In this document: positions 23,524 to 38,485 of the stretch, piece after piece | Numbering within the stretch: position 1 is the stretch's first letter | How the letters are laid out: the number at the start of each line of letters is the position of its first letter | Source: Minisyncoccota bacterium | Lineage (GTDB): Bacteria; Patescibacteriota; Minisyncoccia; Phycocordibacterales; UBA1550 | Assembly (NCBI GenBank): GCA_023229865.1 | Contig: JALNYL010000006.1 | Coordinates: forward strand, 5,597-69,596 | DNA length: 64,000 nt | Direction: 5' to 3' | Position numbers and translations under genes: made by a program | Notes under the pieces: generated by a model | Database searches by the model: none | Told to the model about the DNA's origin: nothing | The model's input: only the letters and a program-made list of their open reading frames with translations

Positions 23524-23966
23524 TACCTCTCCGCTCATATTGAACCGCATCACTAGTTTCAACCACTTCTATTGCCAAACCGGAACATTTCCACTTCTAC
23601 ATATCAACACTCACAGCAAGTAGCATTGTCACATGCAATATAGCAACGAAGTCATACAGAAGTTTATCGCTGCCTACGAACGCGCGCATGGAGAAACACT
23701 CACGCGTGAGGAAGCGATAGTCATGTTTGGAAGACTTGTTCGACTCTATCGCGTATTGCTAATACCTCTGCCTGATGACGATGATCAGTCTACAGGGCTT
23801 CTTCTGTAGTATCTGGCTCCAGTGCTTCGAGCACTTGTTTTTGCAGTACTCGGATATTGTGTAAGACGTGTTCTGTTTCAGTGTCTCCAGTTTCAATTAA
23901 TGTGCGAACGTACTTCATGTACCCGCACAAAACGTAAAGAAAAACAGTGCCTGCGCACTGTTTTTT

Positions 23967-24080
23967 AGTTTTGTGAACCGCAGTGATGTTTTGCGAGCAC
24001 GCAAAACCACGAGGTGGGGCCGGCAAACACTTACGTCTGTGAGGATGTAATCATCCGAAGAGACTTAGTGATTTGTGGAC
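23967..24080 (+). repeat. copy A of ~110-nt conserved intergenic element (terminator hairpin, then TAGTTTTGTG..CCGCAG, hairpin with AGCA loop, CACGAGGTGGGG, CACTTACG, CTTAGTGA)
   Basis: aligned by eye with copies at 26244 and 28227. Confidence 0.5.
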
Positions 24081-24150
24081 AAGCAAACTTTGTGCGCGTA
24101 GCGCTCGACTCCTGTCTTGTTCGTGACCGAGAGCGGTCCCCCTGCCATTA

Positions 24151-24182
24151 TAAAACAAAACCCCCCGACCTTGGTCGGGGGG
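24151..24182 (-). terminator. rho-independent terminator of exonuclease gene (CCCCCCGAC-CTTG-GTCGGGGGG + T-tract on minus strand)
   Basis: seen in sequence. Confidence 0.6.
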
Positions 24183-24189
24183 TTGGGGA

Positions 24190-24735
24190 TTACATCTGCA
24201 TCAAGCGTTTCAGGATTCGGTACGAGCTCATCGCCCCATTGAAGCCTTTGTGAGGCATCGATTCAACAGGGAGTCCGAGCCATTTGGCAACCTCGTCTTT
24301 GTTGAGCTTATCAATGCCGGAAGTCCTGAGTTTTGTCCAGCCGATAGTGAAGAGTTCAAGACGATGATAGTCCATATTGTCCGTGACCGCAGTTCTTCGG
24401 AAGGCTTCTGCAATAAAGGACCAGTCGTACGCCATGTTGTGAGCAGCAAAGAGGGCGCCTTGTGTCTTCTTCGCATATTGAGACATTGCAATACTGAGAG
24501 GGGGTGCGTCCACCCAGTCAGCTTCGTTGTAACCAGTGTGTGTGATACACTTCGCACTCGCTGTTTCGGGGTGCTCTGGTTTTACTCGCGTATCCATGGT
24601 GTCGATGATATCGAAAGTCCGTTGGTCAATGAGTACAAGTCCAATGTCGATAATTTCGTTGGTTATCGGGGAGTGTCCCGTGGTCTCGACATCAGTAATT
24701 GCGATCGGCCTATCAAGAATGCATACGTCATTCAT
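24190..24735 (-). CDS. DnaQ-like 3'-5' exonuclease (DEDDh family)
   Basis: Exo I ITDVETTG, Exo II HNMAYDWSFI, Exo III H...region; SD GAGGA. Confidence 0.8.
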   Translation of the reverse strand: MNDVCILDRPIAITDVETTGHSPITNEIIDIGLVLIDQRTFDIIDTMDTRVKPEHPETASAKCITHTGYNEADWVDAPPLSIAMSQYAKKTQGALFAAHNMAYDWSFIAEAFRRTAVTDNMDYHRLELFTIGWTKLRTSGIDKLNKDEVAKWLGLPVESMPHKGFNGAMSSYRILKRLMQM

Positions 24736-24860
24736 TTTGGAATCCTCTTCGTTTGTTTAAAGATCAGGTACTGCTTTTGATACACTCTCAAAAAGCGGGC
24801 CAAAAGTCAAACAAATAAAAACTGCCCGACTTGTGGTCGGGCAGTAGTAGTGAGGTTGAA

Positions 24861-25283
24861 TCAGTAGGGTTTCGGCTTGCCATCTTCTGTACGAATACGC
24901 ATGCGCGTTTCCGATACCGACAAGACCTTGATCAAGTTGATGTCAGGACTTGAGACGGAGCCGCTGGGAGAAATTTCCCAGACGGGCTGTTGCGCGTCTG
25001 CGAAATGGAGAGCCTCGCGGAATACTCCCGCCCCCCAGGTGCCATCACGGAAACCAAGGAAGATACCGGCGCTACAGCTCGGAAGGACGACTTCGGTGTA
25101 GTAGTCCATCCCATTACCCGTCTCGTTCTTGTACTTTTCGTAGCCCCCCGCGTGGTGACGTTGATTGGGGTTCTCGATTTCCCAGCCGGGGAAGATTTCC
25201 GCGATTTTTTCGAGAAGCTCTTGTTCAAGGGGAGTGTTGTAAACATTCACCGGGTGTCCGAAATACAATTTGCGTCCGCTCAT
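24861..25283 (-). CDS. hypothetical protein (140 aa; MSGRKLYFGHPVNVYNTPLEQELL...)
   Basis: ATG with SD AGGAGG 8 nt upstream; upstream part of track ORF unlikely translated. Confidence 0.5.
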   Translation of the reverse strand: MSGRKLYFGHPVNVYNTPLEQELLEKIAEIFPGWEIENPNQRHHAGGYEKYKNETGNGMDYYTEVVLPSCSAGIFLGFRDGTWGAGVFREALHFADAQQPVWEISPSGSVSSPDINLIKVLSVSETRMRIRTEDGKPKPY

Positions 25284-25324
25284 TTGATTGCCTCCTTGTC
25301 GTTTAAAGATCGAGATATTGCTAT

Positions 25325-25582
25325 TTGATAGCCTCTCAAAAAGGGGTGGAAAAGTCAATGCGCGGGGGGTATACTGTTTATATGATTAAATTTCCTCGGG
25401 CTGAATTTTGGGATATTTTTGGAGTTGGTGTTTTTGCCGCGATTACGCTTCTGAGCGGATGGGCCATCACGACAGGGGAGCCTATCCCTACGTGGGGGCT
25501 CGCGTTCCTGTTTTTTGTGGGGATTTTTGGGATTTTTGTTGACGGGACGATTGTAAATAAGACCTTTTTGAGGAAGAAATAG
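25325..25582 (+). CDS. small membrane protein, hypothetical
   Basis: two hydrophobic helices; start uncertain. Confidence 0.35.
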   Translation: MIASQKGVEKSMRGGYTVYMIKFPRAEFWDIFGVGVFAAITLLSGWAITTGEPIPTWGLAFLFFVGIFGIFVDGTIVNKTFLRKK

Positions 25583-25683
25583 TTTCCCTTCGGTGACTAG
25601 TTGTTGCCCGCCTTTTATGATAAAATATTAGGGTTCCTGGGGAATCCCCATTTGATAGAATTTTTAATTTCAAGATAGATACT

Positions 25684-25917
25684 ATGAAAGAAGTAACAAT
25701 TTACACAACTCCAACGTGCGGTTATTGCAAGATGGCAAAGGAGTTTTTTGTGTCGAACAATGTTCAGTTTAGCGAATACGATGTCGCAGCTGACCTTGAG
25801 AAGCGCAAGGAGATGATTGAAAAGAGTGGGCAGATGGGGGTTCCTGTTATCTTTGTTGATAACGAAATGACTGTTGGTTTTGATAAAAACCGCCTCTCAT
25901 CACTCCTTGGTTTGTAG
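25684..25917 (+). CDS. glutaredoxin-like protein (NrdH/YruB-like thioredoxin fold)
   Basis: TIYTTPTCGYCKMAKEFF CxxC motif, size 77 aa. Confidence 0.8.
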   Translation: MKEVTIYTTPTCGYCKMAKEFFVSNNVQFSEYDVAADLEKRKEMIEKSGQMGVPVIFVDNEMTVGFDKNRLSSLLGL

Positions 25918-25980
25918 TTTGATTTTAGAATAAATCTCTGTACGAAAGGCGGCCATGGCCGCCTTTCGTACAGAGAAAAT

Positions 25981-26055
25981 GCCCCTGTAGTTCAATGGAT
26001 AGAACAGTTCCGTCCTAAGGAATAGATGTAAGTTCGATTCTTACCAGAGGCACCA
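25981..26055 (+). tRNA. tRNA-Arg (anticodon CCT), CCA encoded; one C-A mismatch in acceptor stem
   Basis: cloverleaf folded by hand: D-arm TAGTTCAATGGATAGAACA, anticodon loop GTCCTAA, T-arm GTAAGTTCGATTCTTAC. Confidence 0.75.
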
Positions 26056-26056
26056 G

Positions 26057-26085
26057 AAAAATCTCTACGTTTGTAGAGATTTTTT
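26057..26085 (+). terminator. terminator hairpin after tRNA-Arg (AAAATCTCTAC-GTTT-GTAGAGATTTTTT)
   Basis: seen in sequence. Confidence 0.6.
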
Positions 26086-26243
26086 GTGCCCCTGGTAAGA
26101 ATCGAACAAGAAGGGGGCCAGGGAAACATTTGTTTCCCTGTGGAGGAAGGATTGGGAAAACCGTGGGTTTCCCAAGGGTGAGATAGTGAAGCGTCTTACC
26201 AGAGGCACAAAGCGTTAAGAAAACCTGCTCTTCTGCAGGTTTT

Positions 26244-26362
26244 TAGCTTTGTGCGACCGCAGCCATATTTCGTCAGCAGATGAAATGGCGAGGTGGGGTA
26301 GCGAGCACTTATGTAGATTGCGAGCAGGGCGAAGCAATATACTTAGTGACTCGTGACACAAG
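26244..26362 (+). repeat. copy B of conserved intergenic element (hairpin ATTTCGTC-AGCA-GATGAAAT, CGAGGTGGGG, CACTTATG, GATTGCGAGC, CTTAGTGAC)
   Basis: ~85% identical to copy C over ~105 nt. Confidence 0.55.
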
Positions 26363-26487
26363 ATAATTTAGTCGAGCTTGCTCGTCCATATTTATAGGGG
26401 TACCTTCCTCCTTGCCCTATTTCGTATTTTCTGGCAGTATGACCGAGGAAAGTTGTTTCTAATTAACATACGTAAAGGGAGATTGAT

Positions 26488-27081
26488 ATGAATCCACCTG
26501 TGTGGTGTATTGGCATTACTGGCTTCAATGGGGCAGGGAAGTCAACTGTTGCGGAATTCCTCCGCGTCCACTATTCCGTGGGCTATTACGAGGCGGACGC
26601 ATTTCTCGAGGATGAACGCATCCGTCGTGAAATGCCAAAGGGAAGTGAGTCTCTCGCGTATGTCGCAAATGATTTGCGCGAAAAACACGGCCCCGAGCAC
26701 ATCATGAAAAGCCTCTCTGAAAAGGCAATCACGATTCGTGGACGCACACCGTTCATTATTGAGTCGGTGCGCTGTGTTGGGGAGGTCCAGTATCTCGCGC
26801 GGGAGTTTGGAGATAAATTTGCCCTTATCGGCGTGGATGCTCCAATCGAAGAGAGACATCGGCGTGTGATAGGACGAAAAAACCACACAGACTCCGTTGG
26901 CTTCAGGAAGTTTCTCGAACAAGAAACGCTTGAGATGGAGCAGCGGGATCCGTGGAAGCAAAATCTCCGCGGGTGCATGGATCTCGTGCGCAAAGAATTT
27001 CTCGTATGGAATGCGAGTACGGAATCGCAACTTGCTCGCGATCTCCGTATTATTGCGCGCGCTATGAGGCTTCCGTGTTGA
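26488..27081 (+). CDS. P-loop nucleotide/nucleoside kinase-like protein (dephospho-CoA kinase / dNK-like)
   Basis: IGITGFNGAGKSTVAEFL Walker A at N-terminus; SD AAGGGAG. Confidence 0.55.
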   Translation: MNPPVWCIGITGFNGAGKSTVAEFLRVHYSVGYYEADAFLEDERIRREMPKGSESLAYVANDLREKHGPEHIMKSLSEKAITIRGRTPFIIESVRCVGEVQYLAREFGDKFALIGVDAPIEERHRRVIGRKNHTDSVGFRKFLEQETLEMEQRDPWKQNLRGCMDLVRKEFLVWNASTESQLARDLRIIARAMRLPC

Positions 27082-27249
27082 TGTATGTTTTTCAAACCAG
27101 GGCGATTTGTCGTCCTGGTTTTTTGTTGAATCGCGGATAAGCACCGAATCATGAGGGGGTTGACATCTCTGTTCCTGGTGGTATTATTATACCTAGGAAC
27201 TTCGTTCCTGAAGTCGTTCTTTTTCACAAAATTTTCGAAAGGAAAACCT

Positions 27250-27600
27250 ATGGCACAAAATGCCAAAGCAGCAAAACCCACCCTCGGCCGGAATTTCCTG
27301 AACGTCACAGCGTTCTCGAACTTTCTTAATCAACCGTCAATGGAAGCCGCCATCGGCGCCAAGGGTTACGCCAAGTCCAAAAGCTGCCTCGATCTCTGCC
27401 TGAAAGGCCAGAAGATCCAGGAAGTCATGGTCGTCGGCGTTTCCGAAGGTGGTTTGGCCACCTGTGAGTTCTATGCACGTGGTGGCCGCAAAGAGGTGTT
27501 GTTTGCCTCGGCGGGTTGTCTCTCGGCAATCAAGCCAGTGGTCGCCAAACCCGCAGTCTCCAATGTGTACCAGGAGCTTGATCGTCTGGCCTTCGCTTAA
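27250..27600 (+). CDS. hypothetical protein (116 aa, locally GC-rich)
   Basis: ATG with GGAAAA upstream; followed by tandem hairpins/terminator 27611-27656. Confidence 0.4.
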   Translation: MAQNAKAAKPTLGRNFLNVTAFSNFLNQPSMEAAIGAKGYAKSKSCLDLCLKGQKIQEVMVVGVSEGGLATCEFYARGGRKEVLFASAGCLSAIKPVVAKPAVSNVYQELDRLAFA

Positions 27601-27667
27601 GGCTCAAAACGGTGGCATTTCGCCACCAAAAGCCCGTTCTTTGTGACGGGCTTTTTCATTGGAAAAC

Positions 27668-27705
27668 TTGGAATTTTCGCCAAATCTGCTATAGTATGCG
27701 ATATG
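27668..27705 (+). promoter_or_regulatory. TTGGAA-18bp-TATAGT with ATG 6 nt after the -10: probable leaderless promoter for small membrane protein gene
   Basis: seen in sequence. Confidence 0.3.
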
Positions 27706-27990
27706 GAATTGAATGACCGCAAGATCGATGAACTCCTCGAGCTTACCCGCGAGAATAACAAGATTCTTACGGGGATGCGTCGCGCACAGCGTTGGGGCTC
27801 GTTTTTGAAGCTCATGTATTGGATGGTTATCCTTGGTTCCATTTTTGGGGTGTATTACTACTTCCAGCCAACGATTCAGAAGTATACGAAGACTCTCCAG
27901 ACATCAATCGGAATCATTCAAAATTTTGAAAAGGCAGCCGGTTCAATTCCTACTGACACACAGGCTCTCAAGAATCTGTTGAATCGATAG
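27703..27990 (+). CDS. small membrane protein, hypothetical (MELNDRKIDELLEL...)
   Basis: ATG at 27703; one TM helix. Confidence 0.4.
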   Translation: MELNDRKIDELLELTRENNKILTGMRRAQRWGSFLKLMYWMVILGSIFGVYYYFQPTIQKYTKTLQTSIGIIQNFEKAAGSIPTDTQALKNLLNR

Positions 27991-28114
27991 TAAAATTAGT
28001 CGAAAGTTAAAAGTGACAAGTCGAAAGTATTTGCCGAGGTAGCTGTTTTGGTAGGCCCAGAAGAGGGAAACAAAACAAAGTACCATGAAGGATAGGTAAG
28101 AGAAAAAAGTATAT

Positions 28115-28187
28115 GCCGAGGTAGCTCAGTTGGTAGAGCATTCGCCTGAAGAGCGAGGGGTCACCAGTTCAACCCTGGTCCTCGGCA
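28115..28187 (+). tRNA. tRNA-Phe (anticodon GAA), CCA not encoded
   Basis: GCCGAGGTAGCTCAGTTGGTAGAGC...anticodon loop CTGAAGA...GGTTCAACCC...CCTCGGCA. Confidence 0.85.
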
Positions 28188-28195
28188 CAAAATAC

Positions 28196-28227
28196 AAAAA
28201 CCGCACAACGTCGTTGTGCGGTTTTTG
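28196..28227 (+). terminator. terminator hairpin after tRNA-Phe (CCGCACAACG-T-CGTTGTGCGG + TTTTT)
   Basis: seen in sequence. Confidence 0.6.
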
Positions 28228-28390
28228 TATTTTGTGCCGAGGAAGTAAGCGGAGCTTGCGTCCAGGGTTGAAGGCCGCAGCTATATTTCGTCAACAGACG
28301 AAATAGCGAGGCGGGGGCGCAAGCACTTACGCAGATTGCGAGCTTTGCGAGGCAATATGCTTAGTGACTTGTGTCCGCCCTGATCCTCGG
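28227..28390 (+). repeat. copy C of conserved intergenic element (hairpin ATTTCGTC-AACA-GACGAAAT, CGAGGCGGGG, CACTTACG, GATTGCGAGC, CTTAGTGAC), closed by CCGAGGA...TCCTCGG long-range pairing
   Basis: aligned with copy B. Confidence 0.55.
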
Positions 28391-28402
28391 ATAAGTAGTA
28401 AA

Positions 28403-35147: not shown

Positions 35148-35462
35148 ACTCTGAAATCATAGCAAACTGGGACAGGGATGCCAATTAACCTTGGAATACA
35201 GCTTATTTCTCTGACTGTGTCAAAGTCTCTGGCGTTGCGTTTGGGTAATACTTGCAGTCTGCGTGAGGGAAGCAGTGACAACATCTTGCTTGAAATCCTT
35301 CTTGCTTGATGCGGTTATTGCAGGAGGTGTGAATGTTGTGAGGGAGAGCCTCTGGAGTTTTTTGTTCGTTGGTCATGTGTACAGTATATACCTTTTAAAA
35401 AAGAAATTAAGGGTCACAAAAAACAAAAGAGCGCCCTGGGTGGTGCGCTCTTTTGTTTTTTG

Positions 35463-35534
35463 TGACCCTACGGGGAATCGAACCCCGGTTACCGGCTTGA
35501 AAAGCCGATGTCCTAACCGTTAGACGATAGGGCC
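35463..35534 (-). tRNA. tRNA-Glu (anticodon TTC), CCA not encoded
   Basis: minus-strand GGCCCTATCGTCTAACGGTTAGGACATCGGCTTTTCAAGCCGG...GGGGTTCGATTCCCCGTAGGGTCA. Confidence 0.8.
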
Positions 35535-35840: not shown

Positions 35841-35878
35841 AAATCCCAAAATGAACATTTTGGGATTTCTTGATTTTG
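35841..35878 (+). terminator. terminator hairpin after tRNA-Val (AAATCCCAAAATG...CATTTTGGGATTT)
   Basis: seen in sequence. Confidence 0.55.
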
Positions 35879-36151
35879 TAAGTCGATGGGGGAATCGAAA
35901 GCGAGGGCGGGTACCCGTTCAGCAGAACGGGTCGCACGAGCAGGGTCGAGAAATTTTTACAAGCGACGGCGAGGAAAAATGTTCTTGACCGATTTTCGCC
36001 CAAGACGCGAATTTGCTAATTCGCCATCGCCCGCTGGTAAAAACATTAACACTCGCCTAGAGTGTTTTTTGTTTTGTGGGGGATGGCAGTTTTTTTGACT
36101 TCTTTTTCAAAAGTGCTAGCCTTAGAAAAGATAACCACTACGGGGGTTCAA

Positions 36152-36746: not shown

Positions 36747-37505
36747 ATGATTAATTACGAGCTTGCCGAAAATACCGAGCGCATACTTAAGGAAAAGTAT
36801 AACGGCGTTGAGACGCCTGAGTTTTTTGCTGATATTGAAAGGCTAAAAGCAGGGGAGCCTGTTGCGTATATTCTCGGCTACGAGGATTTCTTGGGGGTGC
36901 GCGTCGACTTGTCGCATCGTCCCATGATCCCGCGCCCAGAGTCAGCACACTGGACACTACGCGCTATCGACGAGCTCAAGACGCGTGGAGATGAGCCTAT
37001 CCGTGTCATCGATCTCTTTTCTGGTTCGGGGAATATTGGCCTCGCACTTTTGAAGCATCTCTCGAATGCACAGGTTGAATTTTCTGAGCTTGATCCTGAT
37101 CTCAGTGAGCAGATCGCAAAAAGTATTCGTCTCAACAATCTCGATATGGCGCGTGCAAAAATTTTTGCAGGAGATGCGCTCGAAGGGATGGAGGGAAAGT
37201 ATGACGCAATCCTTGGTAATCCTCCCTATATCGCTCCTGAAGCAAAAGATGAGCTCGACCCCGAGATGTCATATGAACCATCACTTGCGTTCTTTGGTGA
37301 CAATCACGGCCTCTATCATCACAAGCTTGTCATCGATACCGCATGGGACTTTTTGAAAGACGGTGGCGTGGTGTATATGGAAGCGGATGAAGACCAACGA
37401 CCCCATATCGAGAAGATGCTCGAGGGCACGCCGTGGACGTATGAATTTTGGGAGGATCAGTACGGGCAAGTGAGATTCCCCGTACTTAGGAAAATAGTGA
37501 AGTAG
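36747..37505 (+). CDS. prmC: release-factor glutamine N5-methyltransferase PrmC/HemK
   Basis: GNPPYIAPEA (NPPY) motif, SAM-binding DLFSGSGNIGLAL; track start 36699 is GTG inside the terminator. Confidence 0.8.
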   Translation: MINYELAENTERILKEKYNGVETPEFFADIERLKAGEPVAYILGYEDFLGVRVDLSHRPMIPRPESAHWTLRAIDELKTRGDEPIRVIDLFSGSGNIGLALLKHLSNAQVEFSELDPDLSEQIAKSIRLNNLDMARAKIFAGDALEGMEGKYDAILGNPPYIAPEAKDELDPEMSYEPSLAFFGDNHGLYHHKLVIDTAWDFLKDGGVVYMEADEDQRPHIEKMLEGTPWTYEFWEDQYGQVRFPVLRKIVK

Positions 37506-37558
37506 CCAATTTAAAAAAACGCGCGACCATTTGGTCGCGCGTTTTTTTAAATTGGCTA
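37504..37558. terminator. long bidirectional palindrome/terminator (AGCCAATTTAAAAAAACGCGCGACCA-TTT-TGGTCGCGCGTTTTTTTAAATTGGCT)
   Basis: seen in sequence. Confidence 0.65.
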
Positions 37559-38485
37559 CTTTGAATGTAAATACTGGAAGATGTCTTCGAGTGCGCGCAC
37601 GGCATCACCTGCGGCGATGTTGTTTTGGTGATAGAGGACGTCGGTGCAGTCTCCTGCGGCCCAGATCCCTGGCACGCTCGTCTTTTGCGTGCGGGGGTCG
37701 GTGACGACATTTTTGCTCTCGTTCAAATCAACGACACCCTCGAGGAATCCTGTGTTGGGGAGCTGTCCAATTTCTATAAAGATACCACCAACAGAGAGTT
37801 CCTTTGTCTCTCCCGTTATTCTGTCGCGGATAACGATACCGTTTACAAATTGCTCGCCTTTTACTTCGAGTATTTCTACGTTTGTCGCTGCGCGCATGTT
37901 GGGGTGTGAAAGTACTTTCTCCACCGTGACGGCGTCGGCGCGATTGAACGAAGGGCTGCGATTGATGATGGTAACAGATTTTGCATACGAGAGGAGTTGG
38001 GCAGCTGTCTCAAAAGCAGCATTGCCTGCGCCGATGACCGCGAGATCTTGATCGGCAAACATTGGACCGTCGCATGATGCGCAGTAGGTGAGACCTTTGT
38101 GTTCGTATTTGTCAGCACCGAGGGCTTCGAGCTTGCGGCGATGACTTCCTGTTGATACCAGTATTGTGCGCGCGGTGTATGAGCCTTTCTCTGTGGTTAC
38201 GACAAAATTATCACCTTGTTTTTCGAGCTTCTGTACACGCTCTTCTTTCATCGTGAGCACATCAGCAGCGTATGCCTCAACGTGCGCCTTAAGTGAAGCA
38301 GCAAGCTGGGGCCCCGAGATGGCGATGGTGCCAATCCAGTTTTGGACCTCAGCTGAGTCTGTTGATTGTCCTGCGTAGACCTCAGCGAGCATGAGAGTCT
38401 TCACGCGTTTGCGCGCTGCGTATACTCCAGCAGCGGCTCCTGCGGGGCCACCACCAATAATAATAAGGTCGTAAATATCTTCCAT
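37556..38485 (-). CDS. trxB: thioredoxin-disulfide reductase
   Basis: FAD GGGPAG, redox CASCDG, NADPH GAGNAAFE motifs; coupled to ftsZ stop (TAAATG). Confidence 0.85.
   Translation of the reverse strand: MEDIYDLIIIGGGPAGAAAGVYAARKRVKTLMLAEVYAGQSTDSAEVQNWIGTIAISGPQLAASLKAHVEAYAADVLTMKEERVQKLEKQGDNFVVTTEKGSYTARTILVSTGSHRRKLEALGADKYEHKGLTYCASCDGPMFADQDLAVIGAGNAAFETAAQLLSYAKSVTIINRSPSFNRADAVTVEKVLSHPNMRAATNVEILEVKGEQFVNGIVIRDRITGETKELSVGGIFIEIGQLPNTGFLEGVVDLNESKNVVTDPRTQKTSVPGIWAAGDCTDVLYHQNNIAAGDAVRALEDIFQYLHSK

Follow-up and report, generated by a model that had tools for sequence, protein, structure and literature searches.

The window analysed here, a stretch of 64,000 nt from contig JALNYL010000006.1 (positions 5,597 to 69,596; GenBank assembly GCA_023229865.1) of a Minisyncoccota bacterium, contains three copies of a structured non-coding element (A, B and C) and a divergent fourth member (D), all on the plus strand (Table 1). 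C lies behind the transfer RNA (tRNA) gene for tRNA-Phe and D behind that for tRNA-Val. B is 190 nt from tRNA-Arg, beyond a different inserted module (26086-26213), and upstream of A a tRNA-Gly has been lost except for its final 11 nt and 4 nt of trailer. A sequence-only reading of this DNA had described A, B and C as one family of elements in a single orientation, each following a terminator-like hairpin, and this description holds: a covariance model built from the three copies scores them at 116, 130 and 133 bits, respectively, B and C are 84% identical over 99 nt (about 85% had been estimated), and such a hairpin precedes each copy, in the form of a long palindrome at C. The diverged fourth copy that it proposed can also be retained. 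D is the runner-up in the window with the three-copy model (19 bits, the background being below 20) and reaches 31 bits, with an E-value of about 5e-6, with a model made from 136 homologues, by which A scores 87 and B 100 bits. The second hairpin of D is a variant form that is present in further genomes too. The placement of the copies behind tRNA genes is true of most of the family, less so of B given its distance, and not of A.

No open reading frame (ORF) is found inside the element. A and C have no co-oriented gene downstream, which speaks against a riboswitch or 5' leader, as does the terminator that comes next after type-2 copies (defined below). A promoter of the element's own was searched for before A, B and C and not found; a terminator precedes each. 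A conserved small ORF was rejected by eye, as the reading frame of B is stopped in C.

Distribution and linkage to tRNA genes

A pattern in International Union of Pure and Applied Chemistry (IUPAC) code, derived from the three most conserved blocks, was run on 185,579 species genomes. It matched 93 stretches, every one in Patescibacteria assemblies, with hosts that include Kaiser-, Yonath-, Lloyd-, Nomura-, Wolfe-, Campbell- and Taylorbacteria. The covariance-model search for further copies that had been recommended, carried out on these pattern loci, yielded 136 copies in 73 assemblies; loci often hold more than one copy, in some cases as tandem arrays.

A tRNA gene is located within 400 nt upstream of 104 of the 136 copies, is co-oriented with the element in all of these 104 cases, and belongs to any of 18 isotypes. 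Between the tRNA end and the start of the scaffold lie 35-90 nt, which include a terminator. Among the other copies, several show a tRNA-like T-arm, not called by ARAGORN, about 90-110 nt upstream, and a few lie behind the ends of protein-coding genes, for example at loci L026 and L022, whose upstream genes we take, from reading the sequences by eye, to be L7/L12-like and FtsZ-like. Mean identity among copies is 68% within a genome and 62% between genomes, which indicates that most copies are old or of distinct lineages.

BLAST searches of phage and plasmid databases gave no match, and among viral contigs only one of 19 pattern hits was genuine and resembled host DNA. Exact-protein look-ups returned only contigs identical to the window.

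Secondary structure and covariation

A, B and C share a fold of two hairpins, P2 and P3, with z-scores of -2.9 to -5.6 relative to shuffled controls. Among these three copies, 12 of the 34 base pairs have changed on both sides, including the hairpin for which covariation had originally been claimed. In the alignment of 136 copies, 94.3% of the cells form standard pairs, compared with 31-47% when the partners are slid by 1-3 columns; changes on both sides are seen at 31 of the 34 pairs, and one G-U pair is near-invariant. The earlier argument from covariation to a functional structure is thereby strongly upheld. G-U pairs occur on the tRNA-sense strand only, which assigns the fold to that strand. 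The core also contains conserved unpaired nucleotides and a bulged A, although figures for nucleotide conservation are inflated because the loci were gathered by a sequence pattern. A second set of loci, gathered via a neighbouring protein, holds copies that deviate from the pattern and still score 42-86 bits.

Stumps and scars of elements, described below, are what an inert, decaying repeat would leave behind. Such a repeat, or chance similarity, is nevertheless hardly credible: the scores stand far above the background, the compensatory changes extend over copies from 73 assemblies, and covariation of this kind excludes an inert repeat.

Comparison with Rfam 15 found only tRNAs above the gathering threshold in the window, and nothing credible over the A, B and C scaffolds at E <= 10. 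For the transcript reading through from tRNA-Phe into C, a helix of 32 bp between the tRNA end and its inverted copy is predicted, followed by P2 and P3 (-153 kcal/mol, z = -11.8). Theta ribozymes, which resemble the hepatitis delta virus (HDV) ribozyme, lie downstream of phage tRNAs (PMC10879173) and, like the scaffold, are structured RNAs 3' of a tRNA on the same strand (PMC10879173). A self-cleaving ribozyme of a new kind, trimming the 3' trailers of tRNAs in a similar manner, would agree with this position and with the compact conserved core and its invariant unpaired nucleotides. It is, all the same, very unlikely, since no known ribozyme family is matched at E <= 10 and no HDV-like fold is present, the scaffold is behind a terminator and not adjacent to the tRNA end, and that end is enclosed in a perfect helix, where cleavage is improbable. 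The group I introns of Patescibacteria tRNAs sit in the anticodon loop and are unrelated to the element (PMC13011429).

Other candidates were also rejected. Hammerhead core and K-turn signatures disagree with the consensus of the element, and a -35/-10 pair inside P3 lacks both the right spacing and conservation, in each case as judged by eye. A terminator-targeting class C group II intron is contradicted by the length of about 110 nt with two hairpins only, by the lack of an Intron_gpII hit and by the lack of a recurrent ORF nearby. A retron non-coding RNA would agree with the inverted flanks, but not with the neighbourhood, in which no reverse transcriptase family is recurrent.

Anatomy of the elements

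All parts occur in a fixed order: the end of the upstream gene (X), a terminator hairpin, an inverted copy of X (X'), 2 nt, the P2/P3 scaffold ending in GTGAC, and a direct copy of X (X''). The distance of 2 nt from the end of X' to P2 is exact in nearly all copies. In the commoner layout, type 2, represented in the window by C and D, X extends from C56 of the T-loop through the tRNA 3' end and beyond, X' ends in ...GGAWTCGAA, X'' begins with CGAWTCC right after GTGAC, and a terminator follows. The resulting direct repeats are 7-22 nt long and start at C56, and the tRNAs are still called by ARAGORN. In type 1, to which A and B belong, X consists of the last few acceptor nucleotides and about 5 nt of the trailer, and is parted from X' by one hairpin, P0, whose CUGC tetraloop is conserved; P0-type hairpins in other loci keep this loop while the stem varies. 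The block TAGYTTTGTG, previously listed as conserved, falls outside the core and is a locus-specific inverted copy of the upstream trailer. Kissing of the CUGC loop of P0 with the GCAG of P2 was considered and rejected by eye, as CCGGAG variants occur without covariation. Exact tandem units composed of X, terminator, X' and scaffold are found in L003 and L092.

X' is complementary to X for up to 28 nt. At G-U positions it carries the Watson-Crick partner of X in 16 cases and the base of the tRNA 5' strand in 2, which rules out a closing stem derived from the 5' strand in the manner of an acceptor/T-arm minihelix. The working tRNA end is matched by X' at 9.3 of 10 positions and by X'' at 8.2 of 10, and at positions where X and X'' disagree, X' agrees with X in 57 cases and with X'' in 3. 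This asymmetry identifies X'' as a displaced, decaying copy and indicates that the closing stem between X' and X'' (P1) is not maintained; P1 was on this ground rejected as a selected structure. At L026, behind a protein-coding gene, X' matches X, and X'' differs from X at 4 sites, presumably all synonymous according to a reading of the sequences by eye.

A variable segment held in a 2-nt register beside a conserved scaffold, and matching the neighbouring tRNA this closely, would also be expected of a trans-acting, guide-like small RNA. In such an RNA, expressed from the tRNA promoter, X' would be the guide antisense to the tRNA tail and the scaffold would bind a protein, through a contact surface that may include the unpaired conserved nucleotides, the bulged A and the G-U pair, and the complex would act on tRNAs or their genes. 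The omega RNAs of TnpB and IscB, bridge RNAs and the guides of group I and II introns likewise carry a target-complementary segment at a fixed distance from the core. In the elements described here, however, neither a linked effector gene nor a catalytic core, a promoter or an Rfam match is found, the guide is also paired in cis, that of type 1 would pair mostly with the trailer and not with the mature tRNA, and other cargos occupy the same frame, which makes a guide of this kind unlikely.

Gain, loss, nesting and replacement at orthologous loci

The presence/absence polymorphism that had been suggested as a check is observed among relatives. In the syntenic Yonathbacteria loci L085 and L027, tRNA-Phe has a plain terminator and then the convergent hsp20 gene behind it, which represents the empty site of C; tRNA-Arg(CCT) of L085 is likewise without B. 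In a pattern-independent sample of 27 syntenic loci, obtained via the membrane-protein gene upstream of tRNA-Phe, the tRNA-Phe site is empty, carries X' only, a 5' stump or a 10-nt direct-repeat scar, or is occupied by a full element of one of at least three subfamilies.

Locus L115 and the window come from one and the same sample, and the neighbour proteins are 94% identical. Here tRNA-Phe is adjoined by an element of a different subfamily, followed by a displaced tail, the last 10 nt of a window-type C and a second displaced tail. The working tRNA-Phe end has CCA, with X' matching, and both displaced tails are without CCA. L115 also lacks B, and its tRNA-Arg carries another cargo, followed by a displaced tail and then by the terminator that in the window directly follows tRNA-Arg. 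In all nested cases the newer element is the one that adjoins the tRNA. The encoded CCA at the 3' end of tRNA-Phe varies among the close relatives L115-L141 (ggcacca or ggcaca), and in orthologues with an element the inverted copy matches whichever version is present.

The unit containing A (185 nt) is 92-98% identical in four genomes, behind differing tRNA-Gly genes with bodies 65-85% identical. In one genome it occurs at two anticodons, behind tRNA-Gly(TCC) in L072 and behind tRNA-Gly(CCC) in L027. Proteins of the host genomes are 60-85% identical, and the flanks of the unit are unrelated. The X of A in the window is identical to the 3' end and trailer of the intact tRNA-Gly preceding the unit in L072, L027, L085, L050 and L018. 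The tRNA-Gly(CCC) site is empty in two relatives and holds type-2 elements in two others, and the relic that follows the A units corresponds to the 3' end of an older type-2 element, such as that of the L130 type.

Other cargos and palindromes without a scaffold

Structured cargos unrelated to the scaffold are found in the same frame of X' and X'': the module at 26108-26194 of the window with its homologue in L072, the cargo of L115, and a mini cargo of 22 nt in L062 and L054. The frame behind tRNA-Arg(CCT), which spans 26086-26213 in the window, 151-363 in L072 and 555-696 in L115, holds cargos unrelated to P2/P3. Hairpin modules such as gcgaat..attcgc are common to several cargos, copy D included. 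The acceptor stem of this tRNA-Arg (25981-26055) has a C4-A69 mismatch; its inverted copy (26086-26107) carries the base that would pair with a G69, while A69 is kept in the displaced direct copy.

Terminators in the form of very long perfect palindromes lie at 35410-35469 (tRNA-Glu, minus strand), 25935-25976 and 37500-37561. That of tRNA-Glu has X, terminator and X' without a scaffold, its stem taking in the last 9 nt of the tRNA. Among scaffold-less tRNAs of the fetched loci, about 38% have an inverted copy of the tail, compared with 2% in shuffles.

These palindromes are among the observations that favour a cis-acting element serving the host, in which X' of the read-through transcript would pair with the tRNA tail and trailer and, together with the scaffold, would direct processing, decay or insulation, for example by a double-strand RNase; on this view the duplications would be side effects of the way in which trailers form. 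The invariable co-orientation with the tRNA, the complementarity that X' keeps to the functional tRNA end on both sides of the 3' processing site, the very stable read-through fold and the retention of the fold by old copies through compensatory changes point in the same direction. A host function fits less well with the occupation of only some tRNAs and the absence of the element from the same site in close relatives, with the ready loss that stumps and scars imply, with copies behind protein-coding genes and, in the case of A, behind no gene, and with an efficient terminator between tRNA and scaffold and no promoter. Overall we consider it rather unlikely. Processing or attenuation of the tRNA trailer, one of three options originally offered, would be a possible role of such an element.

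Proposed integrative cassettes at tRNA 3' ends

The data directly support the fold, its linkage to tRNA genes, the constant order of parts, the unequal matching of X' and X'' to the tRNA end, and the turnover of elements by gain, loss, nesting and replacement. We consider it about an even chance (roughly 0.5) that the elements are gene-less integrative cassettes of about 150-250 bp that home to tRNA 3' ends in Paceibacteria and occasionally target other strongly terminated genes. A small circle comprising X, the terminator, X' and the scaffold would recombine within the tRNA tail in a Campbell-type insertion, usually with the junction at T-loop C56 or just past the discriminator base. The cassette would bring a new working tRNA tail (X) and a terminator, while the former tail would be pushed downstream as X''. 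The conserved fold would work in single-stranded form, with the X:X' duplex recreating the double-stranded tRNA attachment site beside the scaffold, and the cutting would be done by a recombinase acting in trans. We infer that the intermediate is circular or single-stranded, that an enzyme is involved, and that the fold acts either in the DNA or in read-through RNA. The layout, tail replacement, stacking and polymorphism match the logic of tRNA-targeting islands; the absence of a promoter and the preceding terminator agree with a role at the DNA level, and read-through RNA is also compatible.

Several points weigh against such cassettes. Clustering of the ORFs within 2.5 kb of all 136 copies revealed no recurrent recombinase, transposase or reverse transcriptase; the largest neighbour protein family accompanies 8 of the 136 copies and is a housekeeping one. 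Neither a free circle nor an excision product was seen. An identity of only about 68% within genomes, with the fold kept, could instead mean that the host maintains each copy for a separate function. The acquisition of a new X with a matching X' on a switch between tRNAs is unexplained, and the unrelated cargos in the same frame suggest that recombination may depend on another signal, with the scaffold carried along as a passenger. Finally, template switching during replication via the palindromic T-loop sequence TTCGAA could produce direct, inverted and direct copies without any enzyme, though it leaves the recurrence of the conserved scaffold at the junction unexplained.

Comparison with known systems

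Phages and islands that integrate at tRNA 3' ends by means of a tyrosine integrase resemble the proposed cassettes in that they insert between the T-loop and the 3' end and supply a new tail, the old tail remains as a downstream direct repeat, and successive insertions stack. The flanking direct repeat of the tRNA 3' segment, the intact tRNA and the empty sites are all found for the cassettes; an integrase of their own is not. They differ further in their size of about 200 bp, in the absence of any other gene, in the inverted copy of the tail and in the covarying fold. A conventional island of this kind, 3.4 kb long, is present at tRNA-Ala of L017 (2540-5950), upstream of a scaffold element; it has direct repeats of 43 nt and a Phage_integrase gene, and two further ORFs that, by eye, we take to be an AAA-ATPase/RloB-like defence pair.

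The attC sites of integrons and attP of the CTX phage recombine as folded single strands. Like attC and the CTX attP(+) used by XerCD, the cassettes have inverted copies that fold to a duplex mimicking the target, covariation specific to one strand (with G-U pairs on the tRNA-sense strand only), a fixed orientation, cassette-like tandem arrays and a variable apical structure. As an inverted attachment copy is needed for recombination of a folded single strand in attC and CTX attP, a single-strand substrate is favoured for the cassettes also. Unlike attC and attP, they have no link to IntI or Xer that could be found, strong conservation of the primary sequence, a tRNA tail as the target, and a possible role as RNA.

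Miniature inverted-repeat transposable elements (MITEs), REPINs and Correia-type repeats are, like the cassettes, short, non-coding, multi-copy, hairpin-forming and intergenic, and lie behind terminators. Of the three options first offered, a MITE-like repeat downstream of tRNAs comes nearest to the evidence, as elements come and go, nest and replace one another at orthologous tRNA loci. It fails with respect to fixed terminal repeats, the terminal repeats being copies of the tail of their own locus, and a partner transposase was not found; the copies are old and divergent with the fold kept, and near-identical loci are seen only for the A unit. The elements are not MITEs of the classical kind.

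Full-text literature searches found no description of the element, and a search by terms did not find it in the survey of 224 candidate RNAs by Weinberg et al. 2017. The family is widespread and apparently undescribed. The known kind to which it belongs is that of integrative or cassette-like elements at tRNA 3' ends; what is new is the family of structured-RNA-like cores, and the mechanism of insertion may well be new too.

Features of the window and neighbouring observations

Table 1. Positions of the parts of elements A-D and of the older cassette at tRNA-Arg in the 64,000-nt window
Element	Feature	Position	Strand	Remark
A	X: tRNA-Gly 3' remnant and trailer, gtacccgcacaaaac	23919-23933	+	tRNA body gone
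A	Hairpin P0, CUGC tetraloop between A-run and T-run, terminator-like	23939-23966	+	
A	Scaffold	23967-24086	+	X' GTTTTGTG 23968-23975, 2 nt, P2 from 23978, P3 end 24078
A	Tail and small hairpin (24079-24109), part of the 185-nt conserved unit	24079-24147	+	Six-locus alignment
A	Relic 3' junction TTCGTGAC/CGAGAGC..CTGCCA, left by an older element	24120-24147	+	Matches 3' ends of L130-type elements
tRNA-Arg	Older cassette of a different type	26056-26213	+	Homologous cargo behind L072 tRNA-Arg
tRNA-Arg	Terminator	26056-26085	+	
tRNA-Arg	X'	26086-26107	+	
tRNA-Arg	Structured cargo	26108-26194	+	
tRNA-Arg	X'' cttaccagaggcaca..	26195-26213	+	
B	Conserved start GTTAAG and hairpin P0 (26220-26244)	26214-26244	+	
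B	Scaffold	26245-26365	+	X' GCTTTGTG 26246-26253, P2 from 26257, P3 ends GTGAC at 26357, tail ACAAGATA
C	Perfect 32+32-nt palindrome (65 nt): tRNA-Phe acceptor 3' strand, terminator, inverted acceptor strand	28179-28243	+	100% complementary
C	Small hairpin P0 splitting X' into two halves	28244-28261	+	P0 equally placed in other type-2 copies
C	Scaffold with flanks	28262-28394	+	Scaffold copy 28264-28383; X' T-arm part CCAGGGTTGAA 28262-28272, P2 from 28275, P3 end 28375
C	X'': displaced tRNA-Phe tail cgccctgatcctcggataa	28376-28394	+	Direct/inverted repeat analysis
D	Element behind tRNA-Val	35841-36034	+	Scaffold copy 35891-35997; terminator 35841-35868, X' gtcgatgggggaatcgaa 35882-35899, variant scaffold to 35989
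D	Degenerate tRNA-Val tail copies	35990-36000, 36026-36034	+	D inverted repeat score 16

The start of B together with its P0 (CGTTAAG and P0) recurs in L051, L079, L057, L087, L015 and L091. Between A and the tRNA-Arg locus, a 35-nt repeat (24776-24810 and 25324-25358, 83% identical) is situated just upstream of two minus-strand genes, encoding an RNase_T-type exonuclease (24190-24735) and a protein of unknown function (24861-25358), and looks like a shared promoter region. Both genes are absent from L027 between the A unit and the small membrane protein. A partial copy of the tRNA-Phe 5' end (87% identical), with the 9 nt upstream of it, occurs at 28024-28054, 82 nt upstream of the real tRNA-Phe. 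In L084, a long run of G directly after the element (from about 3590 onward) is probably an assembly or sequencing artefact of that metagenome-assembled genome.

Implications

Bacteria of the candidate phyla radiation (CPR), or Patescibacteria, have tiny genomes with hardly any intergenic DNA, yet they keep tens of folded cassettes behind their tRNA genes. The family has a covariation-supported structure without a known counterpart and a testable target rule (T-loop C56 or the discriminator base), and a natural series of empty, filled, nested and decayed sites is available for its study. In practical terms, duplicated tRNA tails and long palindromes may confuse tRNA annotation, the calling of att sites and assembly. 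A more far-reaching possibility, which we put forward tentatively and regard with some doubt, is a previously unrecognised class of gene-free but seemingly autonomous mobile elements that would spread as a folded single strand of DNA or RNA, with a stem formed by a copy of the host tRNA tail and insertion into that tRNA gene performed by a host or RNA-guided enzyme; this would amount to programmable, CPR-specific homing to tRNAs. The elements could reveal that site-specific insertion has a new route, via an RNA guide or a single strand in folded form, or that tRNA transcripts are handled at an additional level, in a major uncultured part of the bacterial tree.

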